NCBI GenBank assembly: GCA_964645975.1
Contig: CAZYAF010000011.1
Span: 11,057 to 75,056, forward strand
Direction: 5' to 3'
Source: an uncultured Acidobacteriota bacterium
GTDB lineage: Bacteria; Acidobacteriota; B3-B38; Guanabaribacteriales; CAZYAF01
DNA: 64,000 nt
Position 1 is the first letter of the stretch; every line of letters starts with the position of its first letter. The notes under the pieces are model-generated. The model made no database searches. It was not told where the DNA came from and was given only the letters and a program-made list of their open reading frames with translations. The position numbers and the translations under genes were made by a program. Of the stretch, positions 1-47,743 are shown in pieces.

Positions 1-59
1 AATTAATTGCTTTTATATTTCAAAGTTACCAATTAAGCATAAATTTTGCCATCATTATA

Positions 60-105
60 ACAGAGAGGCCACGCCTCCCCTGTCCGATGCAGCTTTAGCT
101 GCTTA
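60..105. repeat. 46-bp REP-like composite repeat (copy 1; copy 2 at 22618-22663)
   Basis: acagagaggccacgcctcccctgtccgatgcagctttagctgctta differs from 22618-22663 by one base; ends in the hairpin gcagc-ttta-gctgc. Confidence 0.85.
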
Positions 106-180
106 GATATTACCACCCGTTATCAATTTTCTCATCAAAATATTAAGCATTGTATTTTAATAAGGAGACTATGTCTCCTT

Positions 181-340
181 CGGACAACCACAAGGGATTA
201 TCCCTACGTCACTTCGTTCCAAAGAAAGCGGCACAGCCGCCTGGTAATATGCGCATTTGCATATAAATTTATGTTCATGAGCTATAATGAAATGTTTTAG
301 ATATGATAAATTACAGAGAAGCCACGCCTCTCCTGTCCGC
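181..340. repeat. Cluster of GTAG-type REP-like palindromes
   Basis: 181-207 reads on the minus strand gtagggataatcccttgtggttgtccg; hairpin gcggcacagccgc at 228-240; ttacagagaagccacgcctctcctgtccgc at 311-340; the same modules recur at 19.8, 22.3-22.7 and 27.6-27.7 kb. Confidence 0.75.
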
Positions 341-436
341 ATGTGCCGGAGCCGCATTGTAACTTCCCCTTTCTGCAGGGTCTCCTAAATCATTCGATTT
401 AGGATAAAAAGTTAGCAAAACTTAAACCTGTTTGGT

Positions 437-465
437 TTGATTTTTGCTTGTGCTTATGCTACAAT
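437..465 (+). promoter_or_regulatory. sigma70-type promoter of the isocitrate dehydrogenase gene
   Basis: TTGATT-N17-TACAAT with TG extension; RBS AGGAGG before ATG 512. Confidence 0.55.
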
Positions 466-511
466 TTGAGGTTCGTTATCCACGACAATTTAATGTATAG
501 GAGGTCTTAAT

Positions 512-1714
512 ATGAGTAATGAGGCTATTGAAAACGCAAAAGCCCATTTTGAAAAGATTATCCGCGAGCAAATGGAGCGGATTGAGAGGATGAAAGCCGA
601 GCCGGATTGGATCGACTACGCCAAGACAAAGCCCATCATTATTGGGATCATTGGCGGTGATGGCATCGGACCTTTTATTGCAGAAGAGTCCGAGCGAATC
701 CTCAAGTACTTGCTAAAAGAAGAAGAGCAGAGCGGTAAGGTTGAGTTACGAACCATAGAGGGTCTTACCATTGAGAATCGAGCCAAGCATAGCAAGGCGG
801 TTCCTGATGATGTCCTGGAGGAGATTAAGAAGTGCCATGTTACGCTCAAAGGCCCCACCACTACCCCGCGAAAAGGCGATCCCTGGCCTAATATAGAGAG
901 TGCTAATGTAGCCATGCGCCGCTATCTCGACCTCTTTGCCAATGTTCGTCCGGTAAAAGTACCCAAAGAAGGGATTGACTGGATGTTCTTCCGAGAAAAT
1001 ACTGAGGGCGCTTATGTTTTGGGCAGCAGTGGAATCAATGTCAATGATGATATGGCCATTGACTTTAAAGTCATTACTACCCAGGGTACCGAGAGGATTG
1101 CCAGATTAGCCTTTGAGTACGCCAAAAAGAACAACATTAACAAGGTTACCATCGTAACCAAGGCTAATGTGGTAAAAACCACAGATGGTAAATTCCTGGA
1201 CATTGGCTACAAGATTGCCAAAGAATACCCCGGCATAGAGTGCGATGATTGGTATATTGATATTATGACAGCTAAGCTGGTAGACCCCAAGCGCCGCACC
1301 CAGTTCAGAGTTATGGTATTACCTAACCTCTATGGCGACATCCTCACTGACGAGGCCGCTGAATTCCAGGGTGGTGTGGGAACTGCTGGTAGTGCCAACA
1401 TTGGCAAACAATATGCTATGTTCGAAGCCATTCATGGTTCAGCTCCTCGCATGGTCCGAGAGGGAAGAGCCAAATATGCTGATCCCTGCAGCATGATCAG
1501 GGCAGGTGCCATGCTTATTTCCCATATCGGTTATCCAGATAGAGGAAAGAAACTGGAGATGGCTATGGATATCTGTGGTCAGTACGAGAAAAAGATGGTT
1601 GTCACCGGAAGAGATACTGGATGCACGGGTGCTGAAGTGGCAAATTACATAATGGAAACCCTGGAAGACCCCAAATTAGAAGAGCGCTGGAAAGCATATC
1701 AGGAGAGCGCTTAA
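512..1714 (+). CDS. icd: Isocitrate/isopropylmalate-family dehydrogenase, isocitrate type
   Basis: GDGIGP, KGPTTTP, SANVAMRRYLDLFANVRP (Ser/Asn isocitrate signature), PNLYGDILTD, FEAIHGSAP; clustered with mdh and fumarase. Confidence 0.8.
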   Translation: MSNEAIENAKAHFEKIIREQMERIERMKAEPDWIDYAKTKPIIIGIIGGDGIGPFIAEESERILKYLLKEEEQSGKVELRTIEGLTIENRAKHSKAVPDDVLEEIKKCHVTLKGPTTTPRKGDPWPNIESANVAMRRYLDLFANVRPVKVPKEGIDWMFFRENTEGAYVLGSSGINVNDDMAIDFKVITTQGTERIARLAFEYAKKNNINKVTIVTKANVVKTTDGKFLDIGYKIAKEYPGIECDDWYIDIMTAKLVDPKRRTQFRVMVLPNLYGDILTDEAAEFQGGVGTAGSANIGKQYAMFEAIHGSAPRMVREGRAKYADPCSMIRAGAMLISHIGYPDRGKKLEMAMDICGQYEKKMVVTGRDTGCTGAEVANYIMETLEDPKLEERWKAYQESA

Positions 1715-1761
1715 TACATAATTAAGCCTTTCCCATAATAATAAGGATAGAAGGATGTTAG

Positions 1762-1868
1762 CGAGGGGTAAATCTACCTTGACATTAATCTTGTTGTATG
1801 ATAAATTACACTGCTAAGAATATTTTCAGAAACATATCAATATCTGCCGAGGGGTTTATTCACCCTTG
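1762..1868. promoter_or_regulatory. sigma70 promoter flanked by two related imperfect palindromes (candidate operators)
   Basis: TTGACA(1779)-N17-TAAATT(1802) with TG extension; cgaggggtaaatctaccttg (1762-1781, overlapping the -35) and cgaggggtttattcacccttg (1848-1868). Confidence 0.5.
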
Positions 1869-1930
1869 CCTTATAAATATAACAATATATTATTATTATC
1901 AGAAGCCCTAATAAATTAAGGAGGCCTTTT

Positions 1931-3190
1931 ATGGGAAAGACATTAGCTGAAAAGATAATAGGGGCGCACGCTGGTAAAGAGGTAAAGGCTGGGGAGATAG
2001 TAGTTGCAAATGTAGATGTCTGTTTAGGTCAGGATGGTACCAGTCCTCTTGCTATAAGGCAACTGCAAAAGATAAACCTGGAAAAAGCAGCTCATCCAAA
2101 AAGGAGTGTGCTCTTTATCGATCACGCATCGCCTGCACCGCGCAAAGAGCTTGCAAATGACCATATGCTCATGAGGTCCTTTTGTGAGAAAACCGGCTGT
2201 CAGCTCTCGGATGTGGGCAGTGGTATTTGCCATCAGGTGATAAACGAATCGTACGTAAAACCCTGGGATATCCTCATTGGTGCCGATTCTCATACCTGTA
2301 CCGGTGGTGCTCTGGGAGCTTTTTCCACAGGTATGGGTTCTACCGATGTAGCCATAGGTATTGCCACGGGCAAAACCTGGCTGCGTGTACCCGAGACTTT
2401 CAAATTTGTGGTTAGTGGTAAATTCCAGAAGGGTGTCTTTTCTAAAGACCTCATTCTTCATATTATTGGCATGATCGGAGCTGATGGAGCTACTTATAAA
2501 TCCATGGAATTTCATGGTGAAACAATTGAGAATATGGAGATGCACGAGCGGCTAACGCTCAGCAATATGGCAGTAGAAGCAGGAGCTAAATGCGGCTTAA
2601 TATTCTGCGATGAAAGAACAAAAGCCTTTCTTAAAGCTCATGGAAGAGAGGGAGATTACAAGCCAATCTCAGCAGATGAAGATGCTGAATATGAGAAGGT
2701 TTATGAGATAGACGCCTCACAGATTGTTCCCACTATTTCTTTTCCTCATACTGTTGATAATACTCGAACGGTAGACCACAAAGATTGTAAGGATGTAAAA
2801 ATCGATCAGGTATACATTGGCACCTGTACAAATGGTAGATTAGAAGATATAAGGGTAGCATCTCAGATTCTGAAAGGGAAGAAGAAACATGCTAAAACCA
2901 GGCTTATAGTCATCCCGGCTTCGCGCAGAATCTATGAACAAGCAGCGGCTGAGGGATTGCTTAACACCTTAGTAGAGGCAGGAGCAGCAATTGATTCACC
3001 TGGATGTGGTCCATGCGTTGGAATTCACTTAGGAGTACTGGGTGATGGAGAAGCCTGTCTCTCTACCCAAAACAGAAACTTTAAAGGACGCATGGGTAAT
3101 CCTAATGGCTTTATTTATCTTTCTTCCCCGGCAACAGCAGCAGCTACCGCTTTAAAGGGGAAGATTGCCGATCCCAGAGAGGTGTTATGA
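1931..3190 (+). CDS. leuC: Aconitase-family hydratase large subunit (LeuC/HacA type); probable aconitase by context
   Basis: QDGT, IDH, GICHQV, GADSHTCT, GTCTNGR, SPGCGPCVG (three Fe-S Cys), STQNRNFKGRMG; the symbol denotes the family only. Confidence 0.85.
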   Translation: MGKTLAEKIIGAHAGKEVKAGEIVVANVDVCLGQDGTSPLAIRQLQKINLEKAAHPKRSVLFIDHASPAPRKELANDHMLMRSFCEKTGCQLSDVGSGICHQVINESYVKPWDILIGADSHTCTGGALGAFSTGMGSTDVAIGIATGKTWLRVPETFKFVVSGKFQKGVFSKDLILHIIGMIGADGATYKSMEFHGETIENMEMHERLTLSNMAVEAGAKCGLIFCDERTKAFLKAHGREGDYKPISADEDAEYEKVYEIDASQIVPTISFPHTVDNTRTVDHKDCKDVKIDQVYIGTCTNGRLEDIRVASQILKGKKKHAKTRLIVIPASRRIYEQAAAEGLLNTLVEAGAAIDSPGCGPCVGIHLGVLGDGEACLSTQNRNFKGRMGNPNGFIYLSSPATAAATALKGKIADPREVL

Positions 3191-3693
3191 TGGAGAAATT
3201 AAAGGGAAAAGCCTGGAAATTTGGTGATGACATTAGCACAGACCATATTGCACCGGGAAGGTTATTCCATCTGCGCTCCAATCTACCTGAGCTGGCCAAG
3301 CATGTACTGGAGGATGCTCGTGAAGAATTTGCCAGTCAGATGTCTAAAGGTGATTTTGTTGTTGGCCGTAATAATTTTGGTCTCGGTTCAAGCAGAGAAC
3401 ATGCACCCACCATCATTAAATTGGCCGGTGTTAGTGCTGTATTAGCCAAATCCTTTGCCCGTATATTCTTCCGCAATTCAATTAATGTGGGCTTACCAGT
3501 TATTATCTGTGATACTGATAAAATAGATGAGGGAGATGAATTGGAGGTTGATTTAAATGCAGGTAAGGTTTTTAATCGCACAAAAGGGATTGAGCTGTTC
3601 TTTCCTCCATTACCAAAGGTAATGACAAACATTCTGGCTGATGGTGGATTGGCTAATCATATAAAGAAGCATGGCAAAATGGTGCTCGATTAA
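3187..3693 (+). CDS. leuD: Aconitase-family hydratase small subunit (LeuD/HacB type)
   Basis: GDDISTDHIAP, NFGLGSSREHAP, SFARIFFRN; 4-bp overlap with the large subunit; loop reads FHLRS. Confidence 0.85.
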   Translation: MMEKLKGKAWKFGDDISTDHIAPGRLFHLRSNLPELAKHVLEDAREEFASQMSKGDFVVGRNNFGLGSSREHAPTIIKLAGVSAVLAKSFARIFFRNSINVGLPVIICDTDKIDEGDELEVDLNAGKVFNRTKGIELFFPPLPKVMTNILADGGLANHIKKHGKMVLD

Positions 3694-3804
3694 GATTAGC
3701 GTTCAGCTTCTTGCTTTTTGTTCAGATTGAGAGCATACAGCATAGAACATAAGTTAAGTATAGAGCAAAAATTGAAGAAACCTTTGCAATTGTGAGATTT
3801 TTAA

Positions 3805-4755
<951 letters not shown>

Positions 4756-4885
4756 ATTTATCTGGAAGGGCATAAAAGCCCTGCATTACTAAAATAATAA
4801 CCAAAGCAATGCTTTTATGCCCGTACCCCTTTTTTGGGAATATCAACATAGTGCATTAATAAATCATTTAATAAAAGGCAAAACT

Positions 4886-5728
4886 ATGAGAGAAATAAAT
4901 AGTGACACAATCGTGAAGGAAGTCAAAAGACTCTTCATCGAAGCAAATTATCATCTAAATGAGGAGATGATTAAAGCCTTTAAAGAGTCTAAAGAAACGG
5001 AGGAATCTCCTACCGGGAGAGATATTCTTGACCAGTTAATGGAAAATGCTGAAATAGCAAGGGAGGGGCAATTTCCACTTTGCCAGGATACTGGTTTTGC
5101 CGTCGTCTTCGTAGAATTAGGGTCGGATGTAATAATTAAAGGAGCTACACTCCCCGATGCTATTAATGAAGGCGTGAGACAAGCTTATAAGGATGGATAC
5201 TTACGCAAATCTATTTTGGGCGATCCGCTAATAAGAAAAAATACTGGAGATAATACACCTGCTATTATTCATATTGAAATCGTTCCTGGAGATAAACTCA
5301 AGATTAAAGCTCTTCCCAAAGGCGGTGGCAGCGAAAACATGAGTATGGTTAAAATGCTGAAACCAGCAGATGGTGCTGAGGGAATAAAAGAATTTGTATT
5401 ACAACGGGTGAAAGAGGCCGGCCCGAATCCTTGTCCTCCAATTGTTGTAGGAGTTGGCATAGGCGGTACCTTTGAGAAGGCGGCTATGATTGCTAAAAAG
5501 GCGTTATTGAGGCCCTTTGGTAGCCATAATTCGGAGCCTCACTTTGCCGAAATGGAGAAAGAGCTATTTGAGGAGATAAATAAAATAGGAATTGGTCCCC
5601 AGGGCCTGGGAGGTAGAACAACTGCTCTTGCAGTACACGTGGAAGCTCATCCTTGTCATATTGCCAGCCTCCCGGTTGCTATTAATATTGAGTGCCATGC
5701 TCACAGGCATAAGGAAGTAGTCATCTAA
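4886..5728 (+). CDS. fumA: Class I fumarate hydratase, alpha subunit (Fe-S)
   Basis: PLCQDTG, KGGGSEN, AGPNPCPP, GIGGT, GPQGLGG, HPCHIASLPV, CHAHRH; start moved from ORF-track 4817 to ATG 4886. Confidence 0.9.
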   Translation: MREINSDTIVKEVKRLFIEANYHLNEEMIKAFKESKETEESPTGRDILDQLMENAEIAREGQFPLCQDTGFAVVFVELGSDVIIKGATLPDAINEGVRQAYKDGYLRKSILGDPLIRKNTGDNTPAIIHIEIVPGDKLKIKALPKGGGSENMSMVKMLKPADGAEGIKEFVLQRVKEAGPNPCPPIVVGVGIGGTFEKAAMIAKKALLRPFGSHNSEPHFAEMEKELFEEINKIGIGPQGLGGRTTALAVHVEAHPCHIASLPVAINIECHAHRHKEVVI

Positions 5729-5784
5729 TCTCCTTATACCTCATATTATAAATTTTTTAAAAAGCAAATAAGAGGATATTAAAA

Positions 5785-6336
5785 ATGGCAGAAATAAAAC
5801 TTACTACCCCGATATCAAATGAGGATTTAGAAAAGCTTAAAGCGGGGGATAAAGTTCTTATAAGTGGTACTATTTTCACAGGAAGGGATGCAGCTCACAA
5901 AAAGCTTATCGAGCTATTAGATGCTGGAAAAGAGCTGCCCATTGATGTTAGAGGACAGGCTATATATTATGTTGGCCCCTCCCCAGCTCGACCGGGAAAA
6001 GCTGTGGGCTCTGCTGGACCCACTACAAGCTATCGTATGGATCCTTACACACCGAAACTTATAGCTCTTGGCTTAAAGGCTATGATTGGTAAAGGCTCTC
6101 GTTCTGCCGAAGTTATTGATGCTATGAAAAAGCACAAAGCAGTTTATTTAGCCGCGGTAGGTGGTGCAGCAGCCTTGATAGCGCGCAGCATAGAGAAGGC
6201 AGAAATAGTAGCTTATGAGGACTTGGGTTCAGAAGCAATTCGGAAGATGGAGGTGAAAGATTTCCCTGCTATAGTAGTTAACGATACTAAAGGCAATGAC
6301 CTTTATAAATTAGGAACAGATCAATATAAAAAATAG
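5785..6336 (+). CDS. fumB: Class I fumarate hydratase, beta subunit
   Basis: GRDAAHK, YYVGPSP, GPTTSYRMD, MIGKG, GGAAAL. Confidence 0.9.
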   Translation: MAEIKLTTPISNEDLEKLKAGDKVLISGTIFTGRDAAHKKLIELLDAGKELPIDVRGQAIYYVGPSPARPGKAVGSAGPTTSYRMDPYTPKLIALGLKAMIGKGSRSAEVIDAMKKHKAVYLAAVGGAAALIARSIEKAEIVAYEDLGSEAIRKMEVKDFPAIVVNDTKGNDLYKLGTDQYKK

Positions 6337-6467
6337 CTTCCAAATCAATAGTTTTATAGCTTCATTGCTTAATCCCCTAATTAACTATTTAAAAAAAGTC
6401 AGGGTGAAAGGAGCACTCCTTTCGAATATCATGTATCGATTTCGCTTTCAATAAAGAGGAGATAACA

Positions 6468-6893
6468 GTGGAGAGAACTCTTTGTATCATTAAACCTGAT
6501 GCCGTTGAAAGAAACTTAATTGGAAAAATTATATCGCGGCTTGAGGAGGAAGGATTTAACATAACGGGCATAAGAATGCTAAAAATGACAAAGGAGCAGG
6601 CAGAAGGATTCTATCAGGTACATGAGGGGAAGCCCTTTTTTTCGCCCCTCACCGATTATATGTCATCCGGACCATCAGTGATAATAGCTCTCGAAGCGGA
6701 TAATGCTATTGTAAAGCTTCGTAATTTAATGGGAGCTACGGACCCGGCAAAAGCTGAAGAGGGTACTATCAGAAAGGAGCTTGCGATCTCTTTACAAAAA
6801 AATTCAATTCACGGTTCCGATTCGCCACAAACAGCCACTGATGAAATAGCTTATTTCGAAAATATTTTAAGAGTAGAAGAAGATTTTAGATAA
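6468..6893 (+). CDS. ndk: Nucleoside diphosphate kinase
   Basis: [30 protein letters not shown]. Confidence 0.95.
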
Positions 6894-6926
6894 ATTAATT
6901 TTGTAATTATTTATAAGGTAAGAACT

Positions 6927-8054
6927 ATGCAGAATATCATAGATTTTTTAATGCAAAAAGGAGATGAAATAATAGATTTAACCCGTAAACTGGCAGAGAT
7001 GGAGTCTCCCAGTAATGATAAGCAGGCGGTAGATCGTTTTGCAGATTTTTTAGCTAAAGAATTGAGACCACTGGGAGCTAAAACGAAGATTATTGAGCAG
7101 AAAAAAGTAGGCAATTGTCTTAGGGCAGAATGGGAAGGAAATGAGGGGCAGCTTCTGCTGCTTTGCCATATGGACACGGTGTGGCCGATTGGAGAAGTAG
7201 CAAAGCGTCCTGTACGACGAGAAGGGGATAAATTGAATGGTCCTGGTGTTCTTGATATGAAAGCTAGTATTGCTATATTGATGAGTGCTTTTAAAGCTAT
7301 GAAAGAGATTGGACTAAAGCCAAAAAAGAGAGTGGTTGCACTGCTAAATTCAGATGAAGAGATAGGGAGTATTGCTTCAAGAAAACTCATAGAAGAAGAA
7401 GCAAGTTGCTCTCATGCTGTTCTTTGTCTGGAGCCGTCGATGTTAGGTGGTGCTCTCAAAACACAGCGAAAAGGTGTGGGAGTATTTCAAATTAAAATAA
7501 AGGGAAAAGCGGCGCATGCTGGCTCCGGACATCAAAAAGGTATAAGTGCTATTGAAGAAATGGCACAGCAGATTATAGCTATTCATAAGTTAACGGATTA
7601 TGAGAAAGGCGTAACTCTTAATGTGGGAGTAGTTAAGGGTGGTTCCCGTTCTAATGTCATAGCTGAAGAAGCAGAGGCTGAGATCGATTTGCGCTTTTTA
7701 AATATGCAAGATGGACAGAAAGTTACAGATACTATCTTGAATCTAAAGCCTCAACTTCCCGGAGCTGAACTCAAGATAAACGGTGGTATCAATCGACCCC
7801 CTTTAAGCAAAACCCCTCAGAATCAAAAGCTCTATAAGAGAATAAAGGAAATAGGGAAATCAATGGGGCTCAACATCGAAGAAGGTCTCTCAGGAGGTGG
7901 GAGTGATGCCAGTTTTACCTCTGCTCTGGGCATTGCGACTATTGATGGATTAGGGGCCGATGGTGATGGTTGTCATGCCCTGGAAGAATATGCTGTCACA
8001 AGCAGTTTACCACAGAAAGCAGCTCTTTTAGCCGCATTGCTAATAAATTTATAA
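6927..8054 (+). CDS. M20 metallopeptidase (carboxypeptidase G2-like)
   Basis: HMDTVW, GPGVLDMK, SDEEIGS, GKAAHAG, GGGSDA, GCHALEE. Confidence 0.85.
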   Translation: MQNIIDFLMQKGDEIIDLTRKLAEMESPSNDKQAVDRFADFLAKELRPLGAKTKIIEQKKVGNCLRAEWEGNEGQLLLLCHMDTVWPIGEVAKRPVRREGDKLNGPGVLDMKASIAILMSAFKAMKEIGLKPKKRVVALLNSDEEIGSIASRKLIEEEASCSHAVLCLEPSMLGGALKTQRKGVGVFQIKIKGKAAHAGSGHQKGISAIEEMAQQIIAIHKLTDYEKGVTLNVGVVKGGSRSNVIAEEAEAEIDLRFLNMQDGQKVTDTILNLKPQLPGAELKINGGINRPPLSKTPQNQKLYKRIKEIGKSMGLNIEEGLSGGGSDASFTSALGIATIDGLGADGDGCHALEEYAVTSSLPQKAALLAALLINL

Positions 8055-8174
8055 GACCAGAAAAAAGCTTGCCCGTTTCGTTTCTACAATGTTGCTCAGT
8101 TTTGCAGCAAAGAAGTATTTTTATATCCTGAAAGACAAGCTTATAATAGTATCCTATGTATTAATAAAGAGCTA

Positions 8175-8615
8175 TTATTTAACCAGAGCGCCAATAATCA
8201 GACCCCCAATTAGATATAGGATGAGCCCTTCTACCATCCACGTAATGTTAAACATATCTGAAATATCCATCAGGATATACAGACTAAGAAATCTCGGTAT
8301 GCTAGCAACTAAAAAAAGTATAAAATCATAAAAAAGCCCTTTGGCGACACCGCTTTTACCTTTAAGGCCTTCCCTAATCAAAGCATAGACTAAGACAACC
8401 AATATTTCTACGATAAGCGAAAAGACCAAAGAACTTTTAATAAAAGAAGGTAGTATTGGTCTTTCAACGGGCATCGTGAGTTTGCACTAGACTTCATAAT
8501 ATGTGAAGTCATGATAGTCGCTCCACATGAAAAAAGCACCCAGGCTGTGGATTACCTGGCCAACAATAGCGAAAAGGATGCCAGCTACTAAAATTTTCCA
8601 GAATGAGACTTTCAT
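8175..8615 (-). pseudogene. Small multi-TM membrane protein gene interrupted by an in-frame TAG (8487-8489)
   Basis: GGGAGGGA RBS and ATG at 8615; frame reads MKVSFWKILVAGILFAIVGQVIHSLGAFF...YYEV*CKLTMPVERP and continues in frame into ORF 8175-8474. Confidence 0.7.
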
Positions 8616-8835
8616 TTGGAATTCCCTCCCGGTTAAATTAGTCAGGTAATTATTAAATCACGCTTGCCCTGTTTCATTTTTATTATAATTTAATTTATAC
8701 ATAAGGTAATTAAAAAAGTAAAGAAATGATTAGATGCAGCATTTTATCATGGAAGCTCAAATAATATAAAAAAATTTCTCCCTTTAGTATATATGTATAA
8801 GGTATGTGATATCAGGAATACTCGACTATGCTCGT

Positions 8836-8864
8836 TTGCTTTTTTACTAAAAAGGAACTATAAT
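8836..8864 (+). promoter_or_regulatory. sigma70 promoter of the hyp operon
   Basis: TTGCTT-N17-TATAAT about 50 nt before hypA. Confidence 0.55.
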
Positions 8865-8913
8865 TGAAATGGAAAAAATAGTAACTATTACTATTTAAAA
8901 GGGTAAAAATAAC

Positions 8914-9270
8914 GTGCATGAGATGTCTATCGCCAGTAACCTGAAGGAGATAATCGAAGAAGCTCTTCAAGGTCGATCAGTAAATAAAATATTGTCCTTC
9001 AAGCTCAGAATTGGTGAACTAAGAGCAGTGGAGCCAGAGGCTTTGCGCTTTTGTTTTGAGGTTTTGAGCAAAGGAACTCCTTTAGAAGAAACCATCATGA
9101 TAATAGAGGACGTTCCTGCAAAAGCGCTTTGCAATAAATGCAGAAAAGAATTTTTAATAAAAGACCTCACGTTTTTCTGTCCCCATTGTGGTTCAGCTGA
9201 AATTGAACCACTTTCGGGAAATGAGCTCGATCTTGTTTCCATTGAGGTAGATGAAGATGAAAGAAATTAA
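8914..9270 (+). CDS. hypA: Hydrogenase maturation nickel metallochaperone HypA
   Basis: N-terminal MHE; CNKC...CPHC zinc site; GNEL. Confidence 0.93.
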   Translation: MHEMSIASNLKEIIEEALQGRSVNKILSFKLRIGELRAVEPEALRFCFEVLSKGTPLEETIMIIEDVPAKALCNKCRKEFLIKDLTFFCPHCGSAEIEPLSGNELDLVSIEVDEDERN

Positions 9271-9916
9271 AGTTAACAAAAATCTCTTAAGTGCCAACGA
9301 TCAAATAGCAGCCGAGATAAGAGAAAAATTTCGCACTCATAATATTTTTAGCATTAATATGATGAGCTCCCCCGGCTCAGGTAAAACTACTCTCATAGAG
9401 CGGACATTAGAAAATCTTAAGAATTCCTTATCAATTGGTGTAATTGTTGGAGATGTTCAGACAGAGCGGGATGCTCAAAGAATAGCTCGTTTTCAAATCC
9501 CGGTAAAACAGATTGTTACCAGGGGAAGCTGTCATTTAAATGCGCAGATGGTAAAGGATGCCCTTCCCCATTTTACTATCGAAGACCTTGATTTTATGAT
9601 AATCGAGAATGTAGGTAATCTGGTCTGTCCCTCTAATTATGATCTGGGCGAGGATTTAAAAGTCACCTTCATCAGCGTTACCGAGGGAGATGATAAGCCC
9701 CTTAAATATCCTGCCATGTTTCGCGTTTCCAGTGTGTTTATTATAAATAAGTTAGATCTGCTTCCTTATACTGATTTCGATATGGAACAGTGTAAGAAGT
9801 ATGCCCTGAGCATTAATCCAAAGCTCACCATATTTACCACCTCCTGCATTTCAGGAGAGGGATTGGATGCGTGGTACCAATGGCTTCAGAAGGAGATCCA
9901 GCGGAGAAAGAAGTGA
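9251..9916 (+). CDS. hypB: Hydrogenase nickel incorporation GTPase HypB (short form)
   Basis: SSPGSGKTT, GSCHLNA, IENVGNLVCP, EGDDKPLKYP, NKLDL. Confidence 0.95.
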   Translation: MKMKEIKVNKNLLSANDQIAAEIREKFRTHNIFSINMMSSPGSGKTTLIERTLENLKNSLSIGVIVGDVQTERDAQRIARFQIPVKQIVTRGSCHLNAQMVKDALPHFTIEDLDFMIIENVGNLVCPSNYDLGEDLKVTFISVTEGDDKPLKYPAMFRVSSVFIINKLDLLPYTDFDMEQCKKYALSINPKLTIFTTSCISGEGLDAWYQWLQKEIQRRKK

Positions 9917-12189
9917 TGAAGATCAGGGCGAAGATCTTGGTATCGGGTATCGTCCAGGGAGTGGGATTCAGACCTTTCATCTATCAATTAGCTCATAGCC
10001 TTCATTTGCATGGTTATGTAGCCAATACTTCAAAAGGGGTGGATATAGAAGTCGAAGGAAGCCGAAGCCATATCGAGGATTTCATTAGTAAAATTCGTAG
10101 CCAGAAGCCGCCTTTAGCTCAGATTACGGACATTAATGTGTCATATCTACCTCTTAATTCCTATAAAAGTTTTACCATAAAGAAAAGCGCAAAGGAGCAA
10201 TTACGCACAGCATTAGTATCGCCTGATGTATCCATCTGTCAGGATTGTCTAAAGGAGCTTTTTAGCCCCGATGACAGACGATACAGGTATCCTTTCATCA
10301 ATTGTACGAACTGCGGTCCGCGATACACAATCATTAATAATATTCCTTACGACCGGAAATACACCTCTATGGATACGTTTAAGATGTGTCCTCAGTGTCA
10401 GGCTGAATATGAAGATCCCTTAAACCGGCGCTTCCATGCCCAACCAAATGCCTGTTGGGATTGTGGCCCACAGGTTAATCTTTTAGATGCATCAGGTAGA
10501 GCAATAATTTGTGATGACCCTATCAAAAAAACTGTCAAACTCCTTCATCAAGGCTCGATAGTTGCCATCAAAGGATTGGGCGGTTATCATTTAGCAGTTG
10601 ATGCCACCAATTCAGCTGCAGTAGAGCGACTGCGACAGAGAAAATTACGCGAAGAGAAGCCTTTGGCCATAATGTCACATGATTTAGAAACCATCTCCCG
10701 GTATGCAATCTTTGATGCTGCCGAGTCTGAGTTGTTAAGCTCTTATAGAAGACCAATCGTTCTATTGAAGAAAAGGATGCCAAACAAGATAGCTCCTGAG
10801 GTAGCTCCTCGAAATAACTATTTTGGCGTTATGCTCCCCTATACTCCACTTCATTACCTTATTTTAGAGGGAGGTTTTCTCGCTTTGGTAATGACCAGTG
10901 GAAATCTTAGCGAAGAGCCCATCGCTATTGAGAACCAGGAAGCATTGCAAAGATTGAAGGATATAGCCGACTGTTTTCTTACACATAATCGGGATATTTA
11001 TTTGAGAAGTGACGATTCACTCACCAGGATAATTAATAAAAAACCTTTCTTGTTGCGCCGTTCAAGGGGGTACACTCCTCAACCCATAATCCTCAATAAA
11101 GATATGAAGCAAATCCTTGGCTGCGGAGCTGAGGATAAAAATGCCATATGCCTTACCAAAGGAAAAAATGCTTTTATCAGCCAGCACATTGGTGATATGG
11201 AGAATCTGGAAACCTACAAATTTTTTCAGATGACCATAGAACATCTTAAAAAATTGATGGAGATTGAACCCGAAATAATAGCGCATGATTTACATCCAGA
11301 CTATCTCAGCACCCAATATGCCCTCAAACAAAAAGGATATAGATTAGAAGGCATCCAGCATCATCATGCTCATATCGCCAGTTGCATGGCGGAGAATAAA
11401 ACAGAAGATAAGGTTATAGGCCTTGCGCTGGATGGAACAGGTTATGGACTCGATGGACATATTTGGGGTGGTGAGGTTCTTATTGCAGATTATATGAATG
11501 CGGAAAGAATTGCCCATTTTCAGTACATTCCCATGCCTGGAGGCGCTGCTGCAGTAAAAGAGCCCTGGAGAATGGCTGCCAGTTATCTTTCCAAAACCTT
11601 TGGTACGGATGTTTATTCTTTAGATATTGAATTTATCAGAAGAATAGGAGAGGAAAAGTTAAATATAATGAGTCAAATTATTTCAAAGGGAATTAATAGC
11701 CCTCTTGCTTCCAGTTGTGGTCGGCTCTTTGACGGAATAGCATCATTAATAGGCATCAGAGATAAAAATACTTATTCAGGGCAAGCTGCCATGGAGCTGG
11801 AGATGGCAATTGAACATGAGCGCTCCCATCAGGCATATCATATTAAGACAACCGAAGAGCATGATACGACTATCATTTTAATTGATTCCCTTATTCCTCA
11901 GATAATAAAGGATATAAAGGAAGAGACATCTCCGGGTATTATCAGTCTCAGATTTCACAATGCGCTGGTGGATGTTTTTACCCAGCTCTGCCTGGATATA
12001 AGAGAGCGAATGGGATTAAATGAAGTTGCCTTCGGCGGTGGAGTTTTCCAGAATCGCTTTCTTTCTATAAGACTGCAAAAAAGTTTGGAGAGTAAAGACT
12101 TTACTGTTTATACTCACAGCCTGGTGCCCACTAATGACGGAGGGATATCTCTTGGCCAGGTTTTAATTGCTGATAGGAGGTGCGCATAA
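9916..12189 (+). CDS. hypF: Carbamoyltransferase HypF
   Basis: GIVQGVGFRP acylphosphatase domain, two CxxC zinc fingers, RRFHAQP, KGLGGYHL, HDLHPDY, QHHHAH, DGTGYG, PTNDGGISLGQ; ATG overlaps the hypB stop. Confidence 0.95.
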   Translation: MKIRAKILVSGIVQGVGFRPFIYQLAHSLHLHGYVANTSKGVDIEVEGSRSHIEDFISKIRSQKPPLAQITDINVSYLPLNSYKSFTIKKSAKEQLRTALVSPDVSICQDCLKELFSPDDRRYRYPFINCTNCGPRYTIINNIPYDRKYTSMDTFKMCPQCQAEYEDPLNRRFHAQPNACWDCGPQVNLLDASGRAIICDDPIKKTVKLLHQGSIVAIKGLGGYHLAVDATNSAAVERLRQRKLREEKPLAIMSHDLETISRYAIFDAAESELLSSYRRPIVLLKKRMPNKIAPEVAPRNNYFGVMLPYTPLHYLILEGGFLALVMTSGNLSEEPIAIENQEALQRLKDIADCFLTHNRDIYLRSDDSLTRIINKKPFLLRRSRGYTPQPIILNKDMKQILGCGAEDKNAICLTKGKNAFISQHIGDMENLETYKFFQMTIEHLKKLMEIEPEIIAHDLHPDYLSTQYALKQKGYRLEGIQHHHAHIASCMAENKTEDKVIGLALDGTGYGLDGHIWGGEVLIADYMNAERIAHFQYIPMPGGAAAVKEPWRMAASYLSKTFGTDVYSLDIEFIRRIGEEKLNIMSQIISKGINSPLASSCGRLFDGIASLIGIRDKNTYSGQAAMELEMAIEHERSHQAYHIKTTEEHDTTIILIDSLIPQIIKDIKEETSPGIISLRFHNALVDVFTQLCLDIRERMGLNEVAFGGGVFQNRFLSIRLQKSLESKDFTVYTHSLVPTNDGGISLGQVLIADRRCA

Positions 12190-12431
12190 TGTGTTTGGGA
12201 ATTCCGATGAAAGTTGTCGAAGTGCATGGTGATAGGGGTATAGTAGAGATTGGAGGAGTAAAACGAGAAGCCAGCTTTCAGCTATTAGAGAATGTCAAAG
12301 TGGGTGAGTATGTATTAGTACACGCTGGTTATGCAATAAATAAGATCGATGAAGAAGAAGCTCAGGAAACATTAGATTTGTTACGGGAAATTGCAATCGA
12401 AATGGAGAAAGATGATGAAGTTCATAGATGA
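12189..12431 (+). CDS. hypC: Hydrogenase chaperone HypC
   Basis: MCLGIP start, VLVHAGYAI; TAATG coupling to hypF. Confidence 0.93.
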   Translation: MCLGIPMKVVEVHGDRGIVEIGGVKREASFQLLENVKVGEYVLVHAGYAINKIDEEEAQETLDLLREIAIEMEKDDEVHR

Positions 12432-13506
12432 GTTCCATCAACCCGAATTGGCACGCAGTTTAGTATCTAAAATCAAGCACCTGATGAAAGGACAAAATAC
12501 TATCACTTTGATGGAAGTATGTGGCACTCATACTATGTCCATTTTTCGATTTGGTATCAGATCTCTTCTTCCTGATAATATAAAGCTCCTCTCCGGGCCA
12601 GGTTGCCCTGTATGTGTTACCCCCAATCATTATCTTGACCAGGCTATTGCCTATTCTCGTCTACCCGACGTGATAATCACTACTTTCGGGGATATGATGC
12701 GCGTGCCCGGCTCCTCCTCCAGTTTGGAAAAAGAGAAGTCTCAGGGACGCGATATCAGAATCGTTTATTCCACACTGGATGCTTTGAAGGTGGCGGCACA
12801 GAATCAGGATAAAAAGGTTATTTTCCTCGGTGTAGGCTTTGAAACCACGTCACCCACCATTGCCTCCTCCATGCTGCAAGCACAAAAGGATGGTTTAGAA
12901 AATTATTTCATCCTTTGCGCGCATAAGCTCATACCCCCAGCTATGGAGGCCTTGGTTACGGAGGGAGAGGTTAAAGTTGATGGTTTCATATGTCCAGCAC
13001 ATGTAAGCACAATAATAGGTATGGAACCTTATCGTCCTTTAGCAGAAAAGTTCACTATACCATGTGTAATAACTGGCTTTGAGCCTTTGGATATACTTCA
13101 GGGTATTTATATGTTGATAAGGCAAATGGAGGAAAGTAATCCTCGAGTTGAAAATCAGTACAGCCGAGCGGTGAAACCTGAGGGAAATCTCAAGGCCAAA
13201 AAGCTGCTGGATGAAGTGTTTGAATCAGTAGACTCTGAGTGGCGCGGTTTAGGCATCATTCCCCAAAGTGGCTATAGAATTAGAGAGCACTATAAAGATT
13301 ATGATGCAGAAGAAAGAATATCGGTCGAAGTGGAGCCCACAAAAGAACATAAGGGCTGCATCTGTGGTAATATTCTCAAAGGAGTTAATATTCCCCCTGA
13401 TTGCTCTCTTTTCGCCAAGGTTTGCACTCCTGAGACTCCTGTAGGTACATGCATGGTCTCCTCTGAAGGGACCTGTGCTGCCTACTACAAATATGGTAAA
13501 ATATAA
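12412..13506 (+). CDS. hypD: Hydrogenase maturation protein HypD
   Basis: MEVCGTHT, GPGCPVCVT, GFETT, GFEP, C-terminal Cys cluster, CMVSSEGTCAAYY. Confidence 0.95.
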   Translation: MMKFIDEFHQPELARSLVSKIKHLMKGQNTITLMEVCGTHTMSIFRFGIRSLLPDNIKLLSGPGCPVCVTPNHYLDQAIAYSRLPDVIITTFGDMMRVPGSSSSLEKEKSQGRDIRIVYSTLDALKVAAQNQDKKVIFLGVGFETTSPTIASSMLQAQKDGLENYFILCAHKLIPPAMEALVTEGEVKVDGFICPAHVSTIIGMEPYRPLAEKFTIPCVITGFEPLDILQGIYMLIRQMEESNPRVENQYSRAVKPEGNLKAKKLLDEVFESVDSEWRGLGIIPQSGYRIREHYKDYDAEERISVEVEPTKEHKGCICGNILKGVNIPPDCSLFAKVCTPETPVGTCMVSSEGTCAAYYKYGKI

Positions 13507-13523
13507 TCTTTAATTAAACAGAG

Positions 13524-14543
13524 ATGCTGAATATGAAGAAAGAAACTGTAATTCTCGCTCACGGTAGTGGAGGAAAAGCCTGGCAAAATTTGCTGGAAGA
13601 ATTTTTCTTACCTCGATTAGCAAATCCCATTCTCTCACAGCTTTCCGATTCTGCTGTGCTTGAAATGCCTGGTTCACGGGTAGCTTTCACTACTGATTCT
13701 TATGTAGTGGAGCCGCTTTTCTTTCCCGGTGGAAATATCGGAAGCCTGGCGATTTATGGCACGGTTAATGACCTGGCCATGAGCGGTGCGCAGCCCCTCT
13801 ATATAAGCGCTGGTTTTATACTTGAGGAGGGTTATTCCCTTGAAGAACTGGGCAAGATTGCTGATTCCATGCGCGATGCAGCAGAGTTCTGTGGGATTAC
13901 CCTGGCTACTGCAGATACCAAGGTTGTCACCCAGGGCAAAGCCGATAAGATATTTATAAACACTGCTGGTATAGGCGCTGTACCTAACGGGGTTGATATC
14001 TCGGCAGATAAGATAGCATTAGGAGATGCAGTACTCCTCAGCGGCACTTTAGGTGATCATGGTATATCTGTGCTTGCTCGCCGTGAAGGTCTGGAGCTGG
14101 GTACTGAGCTAAAAAGCGATGCCGCACCTCTTCATCGGTTGGTGGCTGATATGATGAAAGCGAGTCCTCATATTCACTGTATGCGTGATCCCACGAGAGG
14201 TGGCTTGGCTTCCAGTCTCAATGAAATTGCTTCTCAGCGCAAACTGGGCATTGAGTTGCAGGAAGATAAGATACCTATTCGTTCAGAAGTGTCAGGGGCT
14301 TGCGCGCTTCTGGGTTTTGATCCTTTCTATGTTGCTAATGAGGGTAAGCTGGTGGCTTTTTGCCCACCGGAGGAATGTGAGAAAGTGCTTGACGCCATGC
14401 ACAAGAATCCCTTAGGCAAGCAAGCCAGTATTATTGGTAGATGCATTGAGGAACACCCCGGAATAGTAACCATAAAGACCAGGGTAGGTGGCTCCAGAAT
14501 TGTTGATATGCTAACCGGAGAGCAGCTCCCACGAATCTGCTGA
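13524..14543 (+). CDS. hypE: Carbamoyl dehydratase HypE
   Basis: AHGSGG, FTTDSY, GTVNDLAM, DTKV, MRDPTRGG, ANEG, C-terminal PRIC. Confidence 0.95.
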   Translation: MLNMKKETVILAHGSGGKAWQNLLEEFFLPRLANPILSQLSDSAVLEMPGSRVAFTTDSYVVEPLFFPGGNIGSLAIYGTVNDLAMSGAQPLYISAGFILEEGYSLEELGKIADSMRDAAEFCGITLATADTKVVTQGKADKIFINTAGIGAVPNGVDISADKIALGDAVLLSGTLGDHGISVLARREGLELGTELKSDAAPLHRLVADMMKASPHIHCMRDPTRGGLASSLNEIASQRKLGIELQEDKIPIRSEVSGACALLGFDPFYVANEGKLVAFCPPEECEKVLDAMHKNPLGKQASIIGRCIEEHPGIVTIKTRVGGSRIVDMLTGEQLPRIC

Positions 14544-14562
14544 GAAGGGAAGGAGACTGTTA

Positions 14563-14976
14563 ATGACCGAAAAATATTTGGATGTGGAAATTAGAGTGCG
14601 TTACTTTGAGACCGACAGGATGGGCAGAGTCCACCACACCCACTATCTTACGTATTTTGAGGTGGGACGCTCAGCTTTTTGCCGCCGTACCGGCATGTCC
14701 TATGATTACATTGAAAGTGCAGGATATTATCTGGTAGTCTCCGAAGCCCACGTTCGTTATCGCTCCTCGGTGTCCTATGACGAATTAGTTAAAGTGCGAA
14801 CCCACCTTGTACAGGCAGACAAAAGGAAATTTATATTCGGTTATCAATTATTAGAAGCCTCAGAAGAAAAAATCCTTGCTGAAGGTGAAACTCACCACAT
14901 TGTTACTGATTCAGAAGGAAAACCTCGAACCCTGCCTGATGAGCTTTTGAATTATTATAAGCCTTTTATTCCTTGA
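14563..14976 (+). CDS. Hotdog-fold acyl-CoA thioesterase (YbgC/4HBT-like)
   Basis: VRYFETDRMGRVHHTHYLTYFEVGR motif. Confidence 0.85.
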   Translation: MTEKYLDVEIRVRYFETDRMGRVHHTHYLTYFEVGRSAFCRRTGMSYDYIESAGYYLVVSEAHVRYRSSVSYDELVKVRTHLVQADKRKFIFGYQLLEASEEKILAEGETHHIVTDSEGKPRTLPDELLNYYKPFIP

Positions 14977-15155
14977 GAAGAAACTATTCTTTTAGCCTCC
15001 TCGAAATACTATATAATTTTGTGAGAATCCAGAATTCTTTTCTAAAATTGCCTCCTGCAAAATTGATGGGCAATTATGATTTCAAAAAGTAGATATGTAG
15101 CTGTTCCAAGTATACTTAAGTTTTAGCTAATGAAGACATCTGAGAAAATATCTGC
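14810..15155. repeat. 346-bp direct repeat, copy 1 (thioesterase 3' end plus HD-GYP 3' end)
   Basis: Near-identical to 17328-17673, with only a few substitutions. Confidence 0.9.
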
Positions 15156-15845
15156 TGATTCATCTTTAGAATCATATACATTACTTAATAATGAACGGAG
15201 CGGCTGATTTTGGATTTTTTCCAGTGTTTCTTTAGGTATTTCAAAAAAAGTTCTAATAATATCAGGATCAAATTGGCTTTCAGAGCACCTTATAAGTTCT
15301 TCAAAGGCTATTTCTTTTGGCCGAGCTTTTCTATAAGGTCTATTGGACGTAATAGCATCAAAGGTGTCGCATACTTGCATGATTCGAGCACCCAGGGATA
15401 TTTCTTCCCCCTTTATGCCATCGGGATATCCATTCCCATCCCAGCTTTCATGATGATGTCTGATCATCTCTAAAATATCTTCATCTGTTATCACTGGACG
15501 CAATATCTTAACAGCAAGAAGCGGATGAGTTTTTATCTGCTCATATTGCTCAGGTGTCAATTTACCTGGCTTATTGAGGACTTCCTCCTTAACTCCAATT
15601 TTACCGATGTCATGGAGCAAGCCAGCTAAATGAAGCTGTTTCTTTTTATCATTGGGTAATGATAGATGCTCCGCCACTGACAATGAATATTGAGTAACTC
15701 GAAGCGAGTGACCTTGTGTATAGCTGTCTCTCGCTTCAAGCGCAAGTGCTAACGATTTGATGGAGTTTAAATATTGTTGGCGAACCTGAGTAATAAGTTC
15801 TTCGACTTTTTTTCTTAAATCTTGTTGTACACCCTTTTTCTTTAT
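15123..15845 (-). CDS. HD-GYP c-di-GMP phosphodiesterase (stand-alone), start apparently non-canonical ATA
   Basis: LHDIGK, HP, HHE, GNGYP, DTFDAITSNRPYR; the frame stays open upstream of 15683 through LEARDSYTQGHSLRV to a TGA at 15852-15854 with no ATG/GTG/TTG; AGGAGG lies 9 nt before ATA 15845. Confidence 0.8.
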   Translation of the reverse strand: MKKKGVQQDLRKKVEELITQVRQQYLNSIKSLALALEARDSYTQGHSLRVTQYSLSVAEHLSLPNDKKKQLHLAGLLHDIGKIGVKEEVLNKPGKLTPEQYEQIKTHPLLAVKILRPVITDEDILEMIRHHHESWDGNGYPDGIKGEEISLGARIMQVCDTFDAITSNRPYRKARPKEIAFEELIRCSESQFDPDIIRTFFEIPKETLEKIQNQPLRSLLSNVYDSKDESADIFSDVFIS

Positions 15846-15997
15846 TACAAATCACCTCCTTCAAAGAGCTCTTATTAAACATAAATAGCACATGTATAGC
15901 AAAGGATTTGGGTTTTACAATCGTGCTATTAGGCACTTATTTCTTTTATGGTAAGAAGCGTATAATTCAGGTGCTTAATAAATATACCCTCATATAG

Positions 15998-16029
15998 TAT
16001 ATAACGACATTTAGTGTCAAAATATTACA
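15998..16029 (-). promoter_or_regulatory. ECF-sigma-like promoter upstream of HD-GYP
   Basis: Minus strand TGTAAT-N17-CGTTATA, same -35/-10 class as the repeats at 24976, 25896 and 27493. Confidence 0.5.
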
Positions 16030-46210: not shown

Positions 46211-47716
46211 TTATTTCCTTTGAGAAAAAACTCTTTGTCTGCCGGCTAATTTCCATTTGCTTTTCCCAGATATTTTTGTTCTATTATTCGAGTTGATATT
46301 TTTAGTTTCGTAGGCGAAAATAGAAGCTCCAATAAGAGCTACTTCATTTAGTGAGGTATCAACTTTAAATCTAATAGGCATAAAATGTTTGTCTACATAT
46401 GAAGTATCATATATACCATTTAAAAAATCATCAACTTCCATGACACTCAAATGGGCAGAAATATTAGATTTAATTCCGCTGATACGATATTCATTAAGAG
46501 CTCGCCTTATTCTATCAATAGCTTCTTTTCTATTTATTCCCCATGCGACAAGTTTAGCAAGTAGAGGATCGTATTGTACAGGCACTTCATATCCTTCAAA
46601 AATCCCGCTATCCAGGCGGATACCTGGTCCGCTTGGTTCTCTTAATCCCATTATTTTCCCGGGTGAAGGGAGAAAGGAATTAGCTGTGTCTTCAGCGTAG
46701 ATTCGGCATTCAATAGCAGCTCCTTTACTTATTATATCTTTCTGTTTATATTCTAATGGCAGACCGGCGGCAATTTTAATCTGGTTTTTAACCAGATCTA
46801 TTCCAGTTACCATTTCGGTAATAGGATGCTCCACCTGAAGTCTTGTATTCATTTCTAAAAAGTAGAAATGTTTATGTTTGTCAACCATAAATTCCACTGT
46901 ACCAGCATTTACATAATCAACTGCTTGAGCAGCGTGAATAGCTTGTACTGCCATCTTCTGACGCAGTTCTTCATCAATAAAGGGAGATGGCGTTTCCTCG
47001 ATAACTTTTTGATGACGCCTCTGAATTGAACATTCCCGCTCACCGAGATGAATAATATTTCCATGGCTATCTGCTAAAATCTGAAATTCAATATGGTGAG
47101 GAGACTCCAGATATTTTTCTATGTAAACAGTGGCATTTCCGAAGGAAGAAAGGGCTTCGGACTGCGTAGCCCGAAAAGCACTCGCCAGCTCCGATTTGTT
47201 CTTTACTAACCGCATTCCTTTTCCTCCCCCACCGGCAGATGCCTTTAATAAGATTGGGAATCCCACTTTGTTAGCTTGTTCTTTTAAATCTTCGAGGGAT
47301 TCAATTGCTTCAAAAGTTCCGCGTATGATAGGTACACCAGCTTCAGATATTATTTTACGCGATACTATTTTACTCCCCATGGCTTCTATTGCTTCTGCAG
47401 ATGGTCCAATAAATACCAATCCTTCCTTCAGGCAACGTCGGGCAAAATCAGCATTTTCAGCCAGGAAGCCATACCCTGGGTGAATTGCATCCGCACCTGA
47501 TTTTTTAGCAGTTGAGATGATATTGTCTATATTTAGATAGCTCTTTGCTGGTTGGGCAGTACCTATACAATAAGCTTCATCTGCCAACCTTACATGGAGT
47601 GCTTCTCTGTCTATCTCAGAATAGACCGAAGCAGAGGGAATACCCATTTCCCTGCAGCAGCGCATGATACGAATGGCTATTTCCCCTCTATTTGCAATCA
47701 GAATTTTTTTAAACAT
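46211..47716 (-). CDS. accC: Biotin carboxylase subunit of an acetyl/propionyl-CoA carboxylase
   Basis: ANRGEIA, HPGYGFLAEN, GGGGKGMR, RECSIQRRHQK, EMNTRLQVEH. Confidence 0.92.
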   Translation of the reverse strand: MFKKILIANRGEIAIRIMRCCREMGIPSASVYSEIDREALHVRLADEAYCIGTAQPAKSYLNIDNIISTAKKSGADAIHPGYGFLAENADFARRCLKEGLVFIGPSAEAIEAMGSKIVSRKIISEAGVPIIRGTFEAIESLEDLKEQANKVGFPILLKASAGGGGKGMRLVKNKSELASAFRATQSEALSSFGNATVYIEKYLESPHHIEFQILADSHGNIIHLGERECSIQRRHQKVIEETPSPFIDEELRQKMAVQAIHAAQAVDYVNAGTVEFMVDKHKHFYFLEMNTRLQVEHPITEMVTGIDLVKNQIKIAAGLPLEYKQKDIISKGAAIECRIYAEDTANSFLPSPGKIMGLREPSGPGIRLDSGIFEGYEVPVQYDPLLAKLVAWGINRKEAIDRIRRALNEYRISGIKSNISAHLSVMEVDDFLNGIYDTSYVDKHFMPIRFKVDTSLNEVALIGASIFAYETKNINSNNRTKISGKSKWKLAGRQRVFSQRK

Positions 47717-47743
47717 AAGAACACATCAGAGATTAATATCCAA

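Follow-up and report, generated by a model that had tools for sequence, protein, structure and literature searches.

A gene cluster around a LeuC/LeuD-like pair

The 64,000-nucleotide stretch of DNA analysed here, referred to below as the window, belongs to contig 11 of a 4.4-Mb, 96% complete assembly of an uncultured Acidobacteriota bacterium (the source genome, G000). Six co-oriented genes occupy positions 512-6336 of its plus strand and are described in Table 1. An earlier note, made from the letters of the window, had listed them as adjacent icd-type, LeuC-like, LeuD-like, mdh, fumA and fumB genes, and all six were indeed found at the coordinates it gave. This work deals with the LeuC-like/LeuD-like pair located at 1931-3693, which will be named X, and presents the evidence that it probably encodes an aconitase made of two subunits. 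The start of the small-subunit gene of X overlaps the stop of the large-subunit gene by 4 bases.

Table 1. Position of the genes, of the two diagnostic codons and of the citryl-CoA module discussed in the text
Feature	Position	Strand	Evidence
Isocitrate dehydrogenase-like gene, 400 amino acids	512..1714	+	PF00180 226 bits (Iso_dh family); Ser-x-Asn substrate loop ESANV
X large subunit (catalytic, Fe-S) of the proposed heterodimeric aconitase, 419 amino acids	1931..3190	+	PF00330 346 bits; PRK00402 593 bits
Codon of Gln34, motif GQDGT, proposed equivalent of pig mitochondrial aconitase Q72	2030..2032	+	alignment column
X small subunit (swivel domain, LeuD/HacB-type), 168 amino acids	3187..3693	+	TIGR02087 181 bits
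Codon of Arg30, loop HLRSNLP, proposed equivalent of aconitase R580	3274..3276	+	alignment via fused PRK07229-type aconitases
Malate dehydrogenase	3829..4755	+	TIGR01763 489 bits, cut-off 352
Class I fumarate hydratase, alpha subunit	4817..5728	+	NF004885 432 bits, cut-off 276; PF05681 match
Class I fumarate hydratase, beta subunit	5785..6336	+	NF005310 304 bits, cut-off 238; PF05683 match
ndk and M20 peptidase genes	6468..8054	+	family assignments; order kept in related genomes
Citryl-CoA module	5637-16002 of locus L008 (source genome, contig 12, 52000-71900)		order: SucC-like, SucD-like, citryl-CoA lyase, HD protein, LeuC2, nSTAND NTPase, LeuD2, Iso_dh, LeuC3, LeuD3

The first gene of the cluster encodes a dehydrogenase with an N-terminal extension of about 40 amino acids. 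It stays below every NCBIfam equivalog cut-off, its best score being 253 of 509 bits with the NADP-dependent isocitrate dehydrogenase (IDH) model PRK09222. The isocitrate signature reported in the earlier note is nevertheless present in its ESANV loop: in the motif ESANVAMRR...NVRP, residues S130, N132, R136 and R146 reproduce the isocitrate Ser-x-Asn pattern of the E. coli IDH. Orthologues of this gene, with 70-75% identity, adjoin X in WOR-3, TA06 and other loci from metagenome-assembled genomes (MAGs; L032, L033, L062, L069, L076 and L089), and other X loci contain an E. coli-type IDH in its place. These typical IDHs carry GGGYRSLNVTLRQ, which is the E. coli IDH motif.

Active-site residues, genomic need and distribution of X

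The large subunit of X possesses the cluster ligands C299, C359 and C362 together with the catalytic residues D64-H65 and D119-S120-H121, and the small subunit the GSSRE motif at residues 67-71, which includes S68-S69-R70. Since the Cys ligands, Asp-His, Asp-Ser-His and GSSRE are common to the whole superfamily, they are necessary for an aconitase and not specific to it. Specificity was examined on the basis of a reference set of three fused proteins of about 640 amino acids from the same phylum, which score 930-969 bits with the aconitate hydratase equivalog NF005558 (cut-off 612). The alignment of one of them with the mitochondrial aconitase 1aco covers 570 residues and places the Gln of TQDAT on Q72 and the Arg of PLRSNIP on R580. 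The GQDGT (Q34) and HLRSNLP (R30) motifs of X align in turn with the fused PRK07229-type forms, whose loops read PLRSNIP or KYRSNIP. Because X aligns with 1aco via these fused aconitases, its Q34 can be equated with Q72 and its loop Arg with R580.

The distribution of these two residues separates X from its relatives. When 50 large subunits are aligned, Gln occupies the Q72 column in all 22 X sequences that are informative there (one more X row, the 23rd, is a truncated open reading frame call), in all three fused aconitases and in the AcnA of Methanosarcina. The 23 other short LeuC-like sequences, which include genuine LeuC encoded beside leuA and both paralogues found on contig 12 of the source genome, have His (13), Arg (7) or Asn (3) at this position and never Gln. 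On the side of the small subunit, the R[ST][ND]LP motif was found in 120/120 homologues of X, within an invariant loop APGR[LY]FHLR[ST]NLPELAKH. The segment GRLFHLRS, singled out in the earlier note, corresponds to residues 24-31 of this loop. The loop is typically PARYLNTSDPEELA in LeuD and YLRT in HacB-like subunits; the two loops quoted for comparison in that note, YLRT (HacB, 2pkp) and YLVY (LeuD, 3vba), can both be seen in the PDB sequences. Among the three LeuCD-like pairs of the source genome, only X possesses these two residues.

Q72 and R580 reportedly hold the gamma-carboxylate of the substrate in the aconitase structures studied by Lauble, Zheng, Beinert and Stout. We take R604 of the yeast Aco1p to be the counterpart of R580 in the pig enzyme. 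This arginine is conserved in the aconitases of the citric acid cycle; the R604K replacement strongly lowers the aconitase activity of Aco1p, and the reverse change in Aco2p reduces its preference for homoaconitate (PMC3556520).

Family models do not assign X to any of the known isomerases built on the same scaffold. The large subunit lies under the equivalog cut-offs of LeuC (504 of 611 bits) and of HacA (NF040615, 463 of 550), and the small subunit under those of LeuD (172 of 246 bits) and of HacB (NF040625, 189 of 230), the LeuCD equivalogs being TIGR02083 and TIGR02084. Scores with the models of single-chain aconitases are also low: 91 of 945 bits for TIGR01341, 123 of 1287 for TIGR00117 and 172 of 825 for TIGR01340.

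The gene content of the source genome is consistent with the need for an aconitase. A citrate (Si)-synthase is encoded on contig 13 (PRK09569, 538 bits for a cut-off of 344). The Pfam aconitase model detects only three genes in this genome, namely the window gene and two genes of contig 12, each of about 415-420 amino acids and LeuC-like. In the 96% of the genome that is available, the search for an aconitase of the AcnA, AcnB, mitochondrial or fused type was negative, the best match to the AcnA model reaching 91 of 945 bits. The check for AcnA and AcnB proposed in the earlier note has therefore an outcome that favours an aconitase function for X, on the ground that a citrate (Si)-synthase and an isocitrate-type dehydrogenase are present and that no other aconitase was found.

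The leucine pathway, to which the usual annotation of X refers, could not be recognized in the same genome. A search for HMGL-family genes (LeuA, CimA, homocitrate or Re-citrate synthase), positive in 14 of 14 control genomes, detected none in it, nor was the dihydroxy-acid dehydratase IlvD found. The observation that leuA, leuB and lysine genes are wanting near X thus holds around the cluster and, as far as LeuA-type genes are concerned, genome-wide. In the absence of both HMGL-family genes and IlvD, no synthesis of branched-chain amino acids is apparent in this organism, which appears to be auxotrophic for them. The label "3-isopropylmalate dehydratase" consequently describes no working pathway for any of its three LeuCD-like pairs. 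The separate leuCD accompanied by leuA and leuB that the earlier note proposed to look for is not present; two further LeuCD-like pairs were found instead, in an unrelated module. HMGL-family synthase and IlvD were likewise not found in the relatives G034, G109 and G013. Another relative, G017, possesses both LeuA and IlvD genes together with a normal leuA-leuC-leuD-leuB cluster.

By sequence comparison, X is a tight family. Its small subunits are 74-85% identical across phyla and, in a library clustered at 50% identity, a single full-length X representative was retrieved at 77%, the next clusters not exceeding 56%. The family was detected in KSB1, candidate division B38, Aminicenantes, Zixibacteria, Planctomycetota, Bacillota/Limnochordia, WOR-3 and TA06, and also in Ignavibacteria, Thermodesulfobacteriota, Methylomirabilis, Hydrothermarchaeota and Methanosarcinaceae. 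Nearly all these homologues are named 3-isopropylmalate, or (R)-2-methylmalate, dehydratase small subunit in the databases, and a single NCBI record uses the name "aconitate hydratase small subunit".

The synteny of X was investigated in 80 loci taken from named MAGs and genomes, which were searched by TBLASTN with the proteins of the window. The icd gene directly follows X in about 35 of them, and a citrate synthase of the contig 13 type (62-64% identity) directly precedes X in about 10. The citrate synthase gene even separates the two subunit genes of X in L069 (TA06) and L076. The mdh and fumAB genes are linked to X in a dozen loci, with mdh placed after X and icd in L013, L019, L106 and L112. 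The most compact arrangement is illustrated by G109, a 100% complete genome of 1.9 Mb in which the genes for citrate synthase, X large subunit, X small subunit and IDH are consecutive. The window order X-icd-mdh-fumAB-ndk-M20 is repeated in the relative G017 (L112) and in a B38 MAG (L013). In none of the 80 loci was leuA seen as a neighbour of X.

Most carriers of X were found to contain no other aconitase, as observed in nine of the ten carrier genomes checked. A long aconitase, either canonical or fused, was not found in the source genome, the 6-Mb planctomycete G002, the Zixibacteria G003, the B38 genomes G004/G034, the Methylomirabilis G005, G017, G109, G013 and G073. X is the sole aconitase-family gene of the planctomycete. 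This genome was rejected as a clean case of an organism in need of an aconitase, no PF00285 citrate synthase having been found in it. The genome G114, which is devoid of a true X, encodes instead a LeuC-like protein with 52% identity and a fused aconitase of 664 amino acids. In a sample of 121 genomes of the phylum, aconitase genes of the AcnA, mitochondrial or fused type occur in most of the other genomes and in none of the X carriers; no statistic was drawn from this sample, because its carriers belong to two lineages only and some fused forms fall under the threshold. One row of the phylum samples is an unpublished genome (G028), on which no claim is based.

Proposed function of X and competing explanations

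From the gene content, the residues, the synteny and the absence of alternatives, we infer both the activity of X and the role of its Gln34 and Arg30. X is most probably a heterodimeric aconitase supplying 2-oxoglutarate in a branched tricarboxylic acid (TCA) pathway, and very probably the sole aconitase of this anaerobe. It would be a [4Fe-4S] enzyme built on the archaeal LeuC/LeuD scaffold and converting citrate, cis-aconitate and isocitrate into one another. The large subunit would carry the cluster along with the catalytic Asp-His and Asp-Ser-His, and the small subunit would give the Ser base of GSSRE and the substrate loop. Gln34 and Arg30 are predicted to hold the CH2-COO- arm of citrate and isocitrate, as do Q72 and R580 in the mitochondrial aconitase. 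X would provide 2-oxoglutarate in combination with the citrate (Si)-synthase of contig 13 and the adjacent IDH, the malate dehydrogenase and fumarate hydratase of the cluster serving the other arm of the branched pathway. The proposal of the earlier note, a split minimal aconitase mis-annotated as a leucine biosynthesis enzyme, gains support from the genomic absences and from the Q72/R580 equivalents, and its part placing X outside leucine synthesis agrees with the lack of detectable LeuA and IlvD.

Several observations weigh against this function. X reaches no NCBIfam aconitase equivalog cut-off, its large subunit alone scoring 381 of 612 bits with NF005558, and about 4% of the source genome is unassembled. 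The planctomycete G002 carries X with no PF00285 citrate synthase found. No enzyme assay of any member of the X family was found in the searchable literature. The deep branching of X differs between trees: a rapid IQ-TREE analysis joined it to the fused aconitases (SH-aLRT 97), and in a FastTree tree that had AcnA as outgroup it fell, with weak support, among the short forms. No sister-group relationship between X and the fused aconitases is claimed for this reason. Finally, Methanosarcina sp. Mfa9 carries both X and an AcnA of 934 amino acids, so that X cannot be regarded as the only aconitase everywhere; its role may be a different one in this organism.

The Methanosarcina genome is instructive in a second respect. 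Besides X, it contains a LeuD-like (YLIF) and a HacB-like (YLRT) small subunit, each adjoining an Iso_dh gene. The separate existence of these two subunits indicates that X is neither LeuCD nor HacAB there. The neighbours of X in Methanosarcina (Thi4, a radical SAM gene and transposases) are uninformative. The AcnA gene of Mfa9 (L100, C1:2570000-2581000) has a citrate synthase gene on each side, the two encoding 366 and 373 amino acids.

The explanation that survives best after the aconitase function is that X acts as a hydro-lyase on a different tricarboxylate, for instance homoaconitate, 2-methyl-cis-aconitate or some similar acid, the linkage with icd reflecting a pathway that only resembles the TCA branch. 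A loop Arg marks the homoaconitase of methanogens as well (YLRT), and the AcnA of Methanosarcina and the apparent lack of citrate synthase in G002 could both be accommodated in this way. It seems improbable, however, in view of the HacB-like YLRT subunit that Methanosarcina owns besides X, and no homocitrate synthase-type gene was found in the source genome. The dehydrogenases adjacent to X carry the isocitrate Ser-x-Asn, many of them with the E. coli IDH motif, and the recurrent upstream neighbour is a citrate (Si)-synthase. Moreover, Q72 and RSN(L/I)P are common to X and the aconitases and are not those of HacAB.

A second explanation would assign the working aconitase to another gene, either the LeuCD-like pair of contig 12 located beside the citryl-CoA synthetase/lyase genes or a canonical enzyme encoded in the unassembled part of the genome, and X would then have some other role. 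The contig 12 pair adjoins citrate-cleaving enzymes and an Iso_dh-family gene, and the genome is only 96% complete. A clustering of ATP-citrate lyase with an "aconitase" and IDH, described in a MAG study (PMC8542988), also counts in its favour. This explanation is nonetheless quite improbable. The large subunits of contig 12 have His or Arg at the Q72 column, with Asp-Cys in one of them, their small subunits lack the loop Arg, and the dehydrogenase reads FSPIV and not Ser-x-Asn. The module persists in G114 beside a fused aconitase, with which it is therefore not redundant, and four near-complete relatives are equally devoid of any detectable long aconitase.

The last explanation, a 3-isopropylmalate/citramalate isomerase for leucine or isoleucine synthesis, draws on the two-subunit LeuC/LeuD architecture, the high PRK00402, TIGR02086 and TIGR02087 scores and the database names of nearly all homologues, and is hardly tenable for an X that misses the LeuC and LeuD cut-offs, departs from the hydrophobic YLVY/YLNT (YLNTSDP) type of loop, neighbours TCA genes and never leuA, occurs in a genome where no LeuA/CimA-family synthase or IlvD was found, and coexists in G017 and Methanosarcina with a separate genuine LeuCD (beside leuA/leuB, or with the YLIF loop).

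The citryl-CoA module of contig 12 (Table 1) deserves a description of its own. Its SucC-like gene gives a weak match to the citrate-binding domain of ATP-citrate lyase, and its citryl-CoA lyase scores 281 bits for a cut-off of 212. LeuC2 and LeuD2 are located at 9462-10721 and 12506-13000 of L008, and the LeuC3/LeuD3 pair at 14173-16002. In LeuC3, the catalytic Asp-His is replaced by Asp-Cys and the Q72 column is occupied by Arg. The small-subunit loops of the module are GKYTYTIT and HNAHLAIT. The module is also present in G017 and G034 and partially in G109, G114 and G085. Its occurrence in genomes where LeuA and IlvD were not found (G000, G034, G109 and G013) indicates that it does not serve leucine synthesis. 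In the source genome only, an nSTAND1 NTPase gene (L008 10741-12447, 568 amino acids) lies between LeuC2 and LeuD2; these two genes are adjacent in G017 and G034, and the nSTAND1 gene looks like an insertion that split the pair.

Taken more broadly, it seems reasonably likely that X represents an uncharacterised class of heterodimeric aconitases, the sole aconitase in many anaerobic and mostly uncultured phyla and a second one in Methanosarcinaceae, and that all three pairs of the source genome lie outside leucine synthesis, the other two belonging to an undescribed tricarboxylate-type module joined to citryl-CoA synthetase/lyase genes. If this is true, automated metabolic reconstructions report a missing aconitase, and thus a broken TCA branch and glutamate auxotrophy, and also credit the organism with a leucine-pathway step that it may not have. 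The lineages affected would be Zixibacteria, KSB1, WOR-3, TA06, Aminicenantes, many Bacillota and Planctomycetota MAGs, and Methanosarcinaceae. Re-annotation could follow a simple rule, which combines Gln in (G/T/V)QDGT of the large subunit with Arg in RSNLP of the small subunit. X would also provide a compact, probably oxygen-sensitive aconitase on the LeuCD scaffold, useful for the study of specificity shifts within the aconitase superfamily.

Other features of the window can be mentioned briefly. The ndk and M20 peptidase genes that follow the cluster are probably outside the pathway. A promoter and terminator scan of positions 1-8500 gave the same counts as shuffled sequence and yields no evidence for an operon, and an Rfam scan of the window returned no match. 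The hydrogenase maturation genes hypF, hypD and hypE, found just downstream of the cluster (9871-14543), agree with an anaerobic, hydrogen-metabolising lifestyle. Adjacent biotin carboxylase and carboxyltransferase genes occupy 46211-49294 on the minus strand; this pair encodes an acyl-CoA carboxylase or decarboxylase, which could connect with the branched TCA pathway on its succinate/propionate side.

Comparison with known systems

The TCA operon of Dehalococcoides mccartyi has a similar gene order: LeuC-like, LeuD-like, icd, mdh and the alpha and beta subunits of fumarate hydratase. Its LeuC/LeuD-like pair is a putative two-subunit aconitase, which may belong to the X family. The IDH of this organism, DET0450, has been assayed, and its gene belongs to an operon with other putative TCA genes, the aconitase step being unmentioned (PMC4720418).

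The isopropylmalate/citramalate isomerase LeuCD (PDB 4KP1/4NQY, 3VBA) and the homoaconitase HacAB (4KP2, 2PKP) of Methanocaldococcus jannaschii are heterodimers of the same fold family as X and the best PDB sequence matches of its small subunit, with E values of 7e-43 and 1e-37. Specificity is set in both of them by the small-subunit loop, which is one to two residues longer in X (HLRSNLP versus YLVY or YLRT). The large subunit of X has Gln at a position where the LeuC/HacA-like large subunits of Methanosarcina, in common with all other short LeuC-like sequences aligned, contain His, Arg or Asn. The genomic partners differ as well: citrate synthase and IDH for X, LeuA/LeuB or AksA/AksF in the comparison with M. 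jannaschii.

The mitochondrial aconitase, AcnA and AcnB share with X the three Cys ligands, Asp-His, Asp-Ser-His, the Ser and Arg of GSSRE, and the Q72/R580 equivalents. They consist of a single four-domain chain of 750-950 amino acids, whereas X is made of subunits of 419 and 168 amino acids, and the sequence similarity between X and AcnA is low (91 of 945 bits with the AcnA model).

The fused aconitate hydratase of about 640 amino acids (NF005558/PRK07229; TIGR01342, "putative aconitate hydratase") differs from X, which is split in two polypeptides, is about 35-38% identical to it and stays under the cut-off of its model. With the NF005558/PRK07229 model, X nevertheless scores above its LeuCD-like paralogues, its small subunit reaching 91 bits while that of the paralogue is not listed. 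The catalytic core of both enzymes is the same, and in both of them the (T/G)QD(A/G)T motif provides the Gln and the RSN(I/L)P loop the Arg equivalent to R580.

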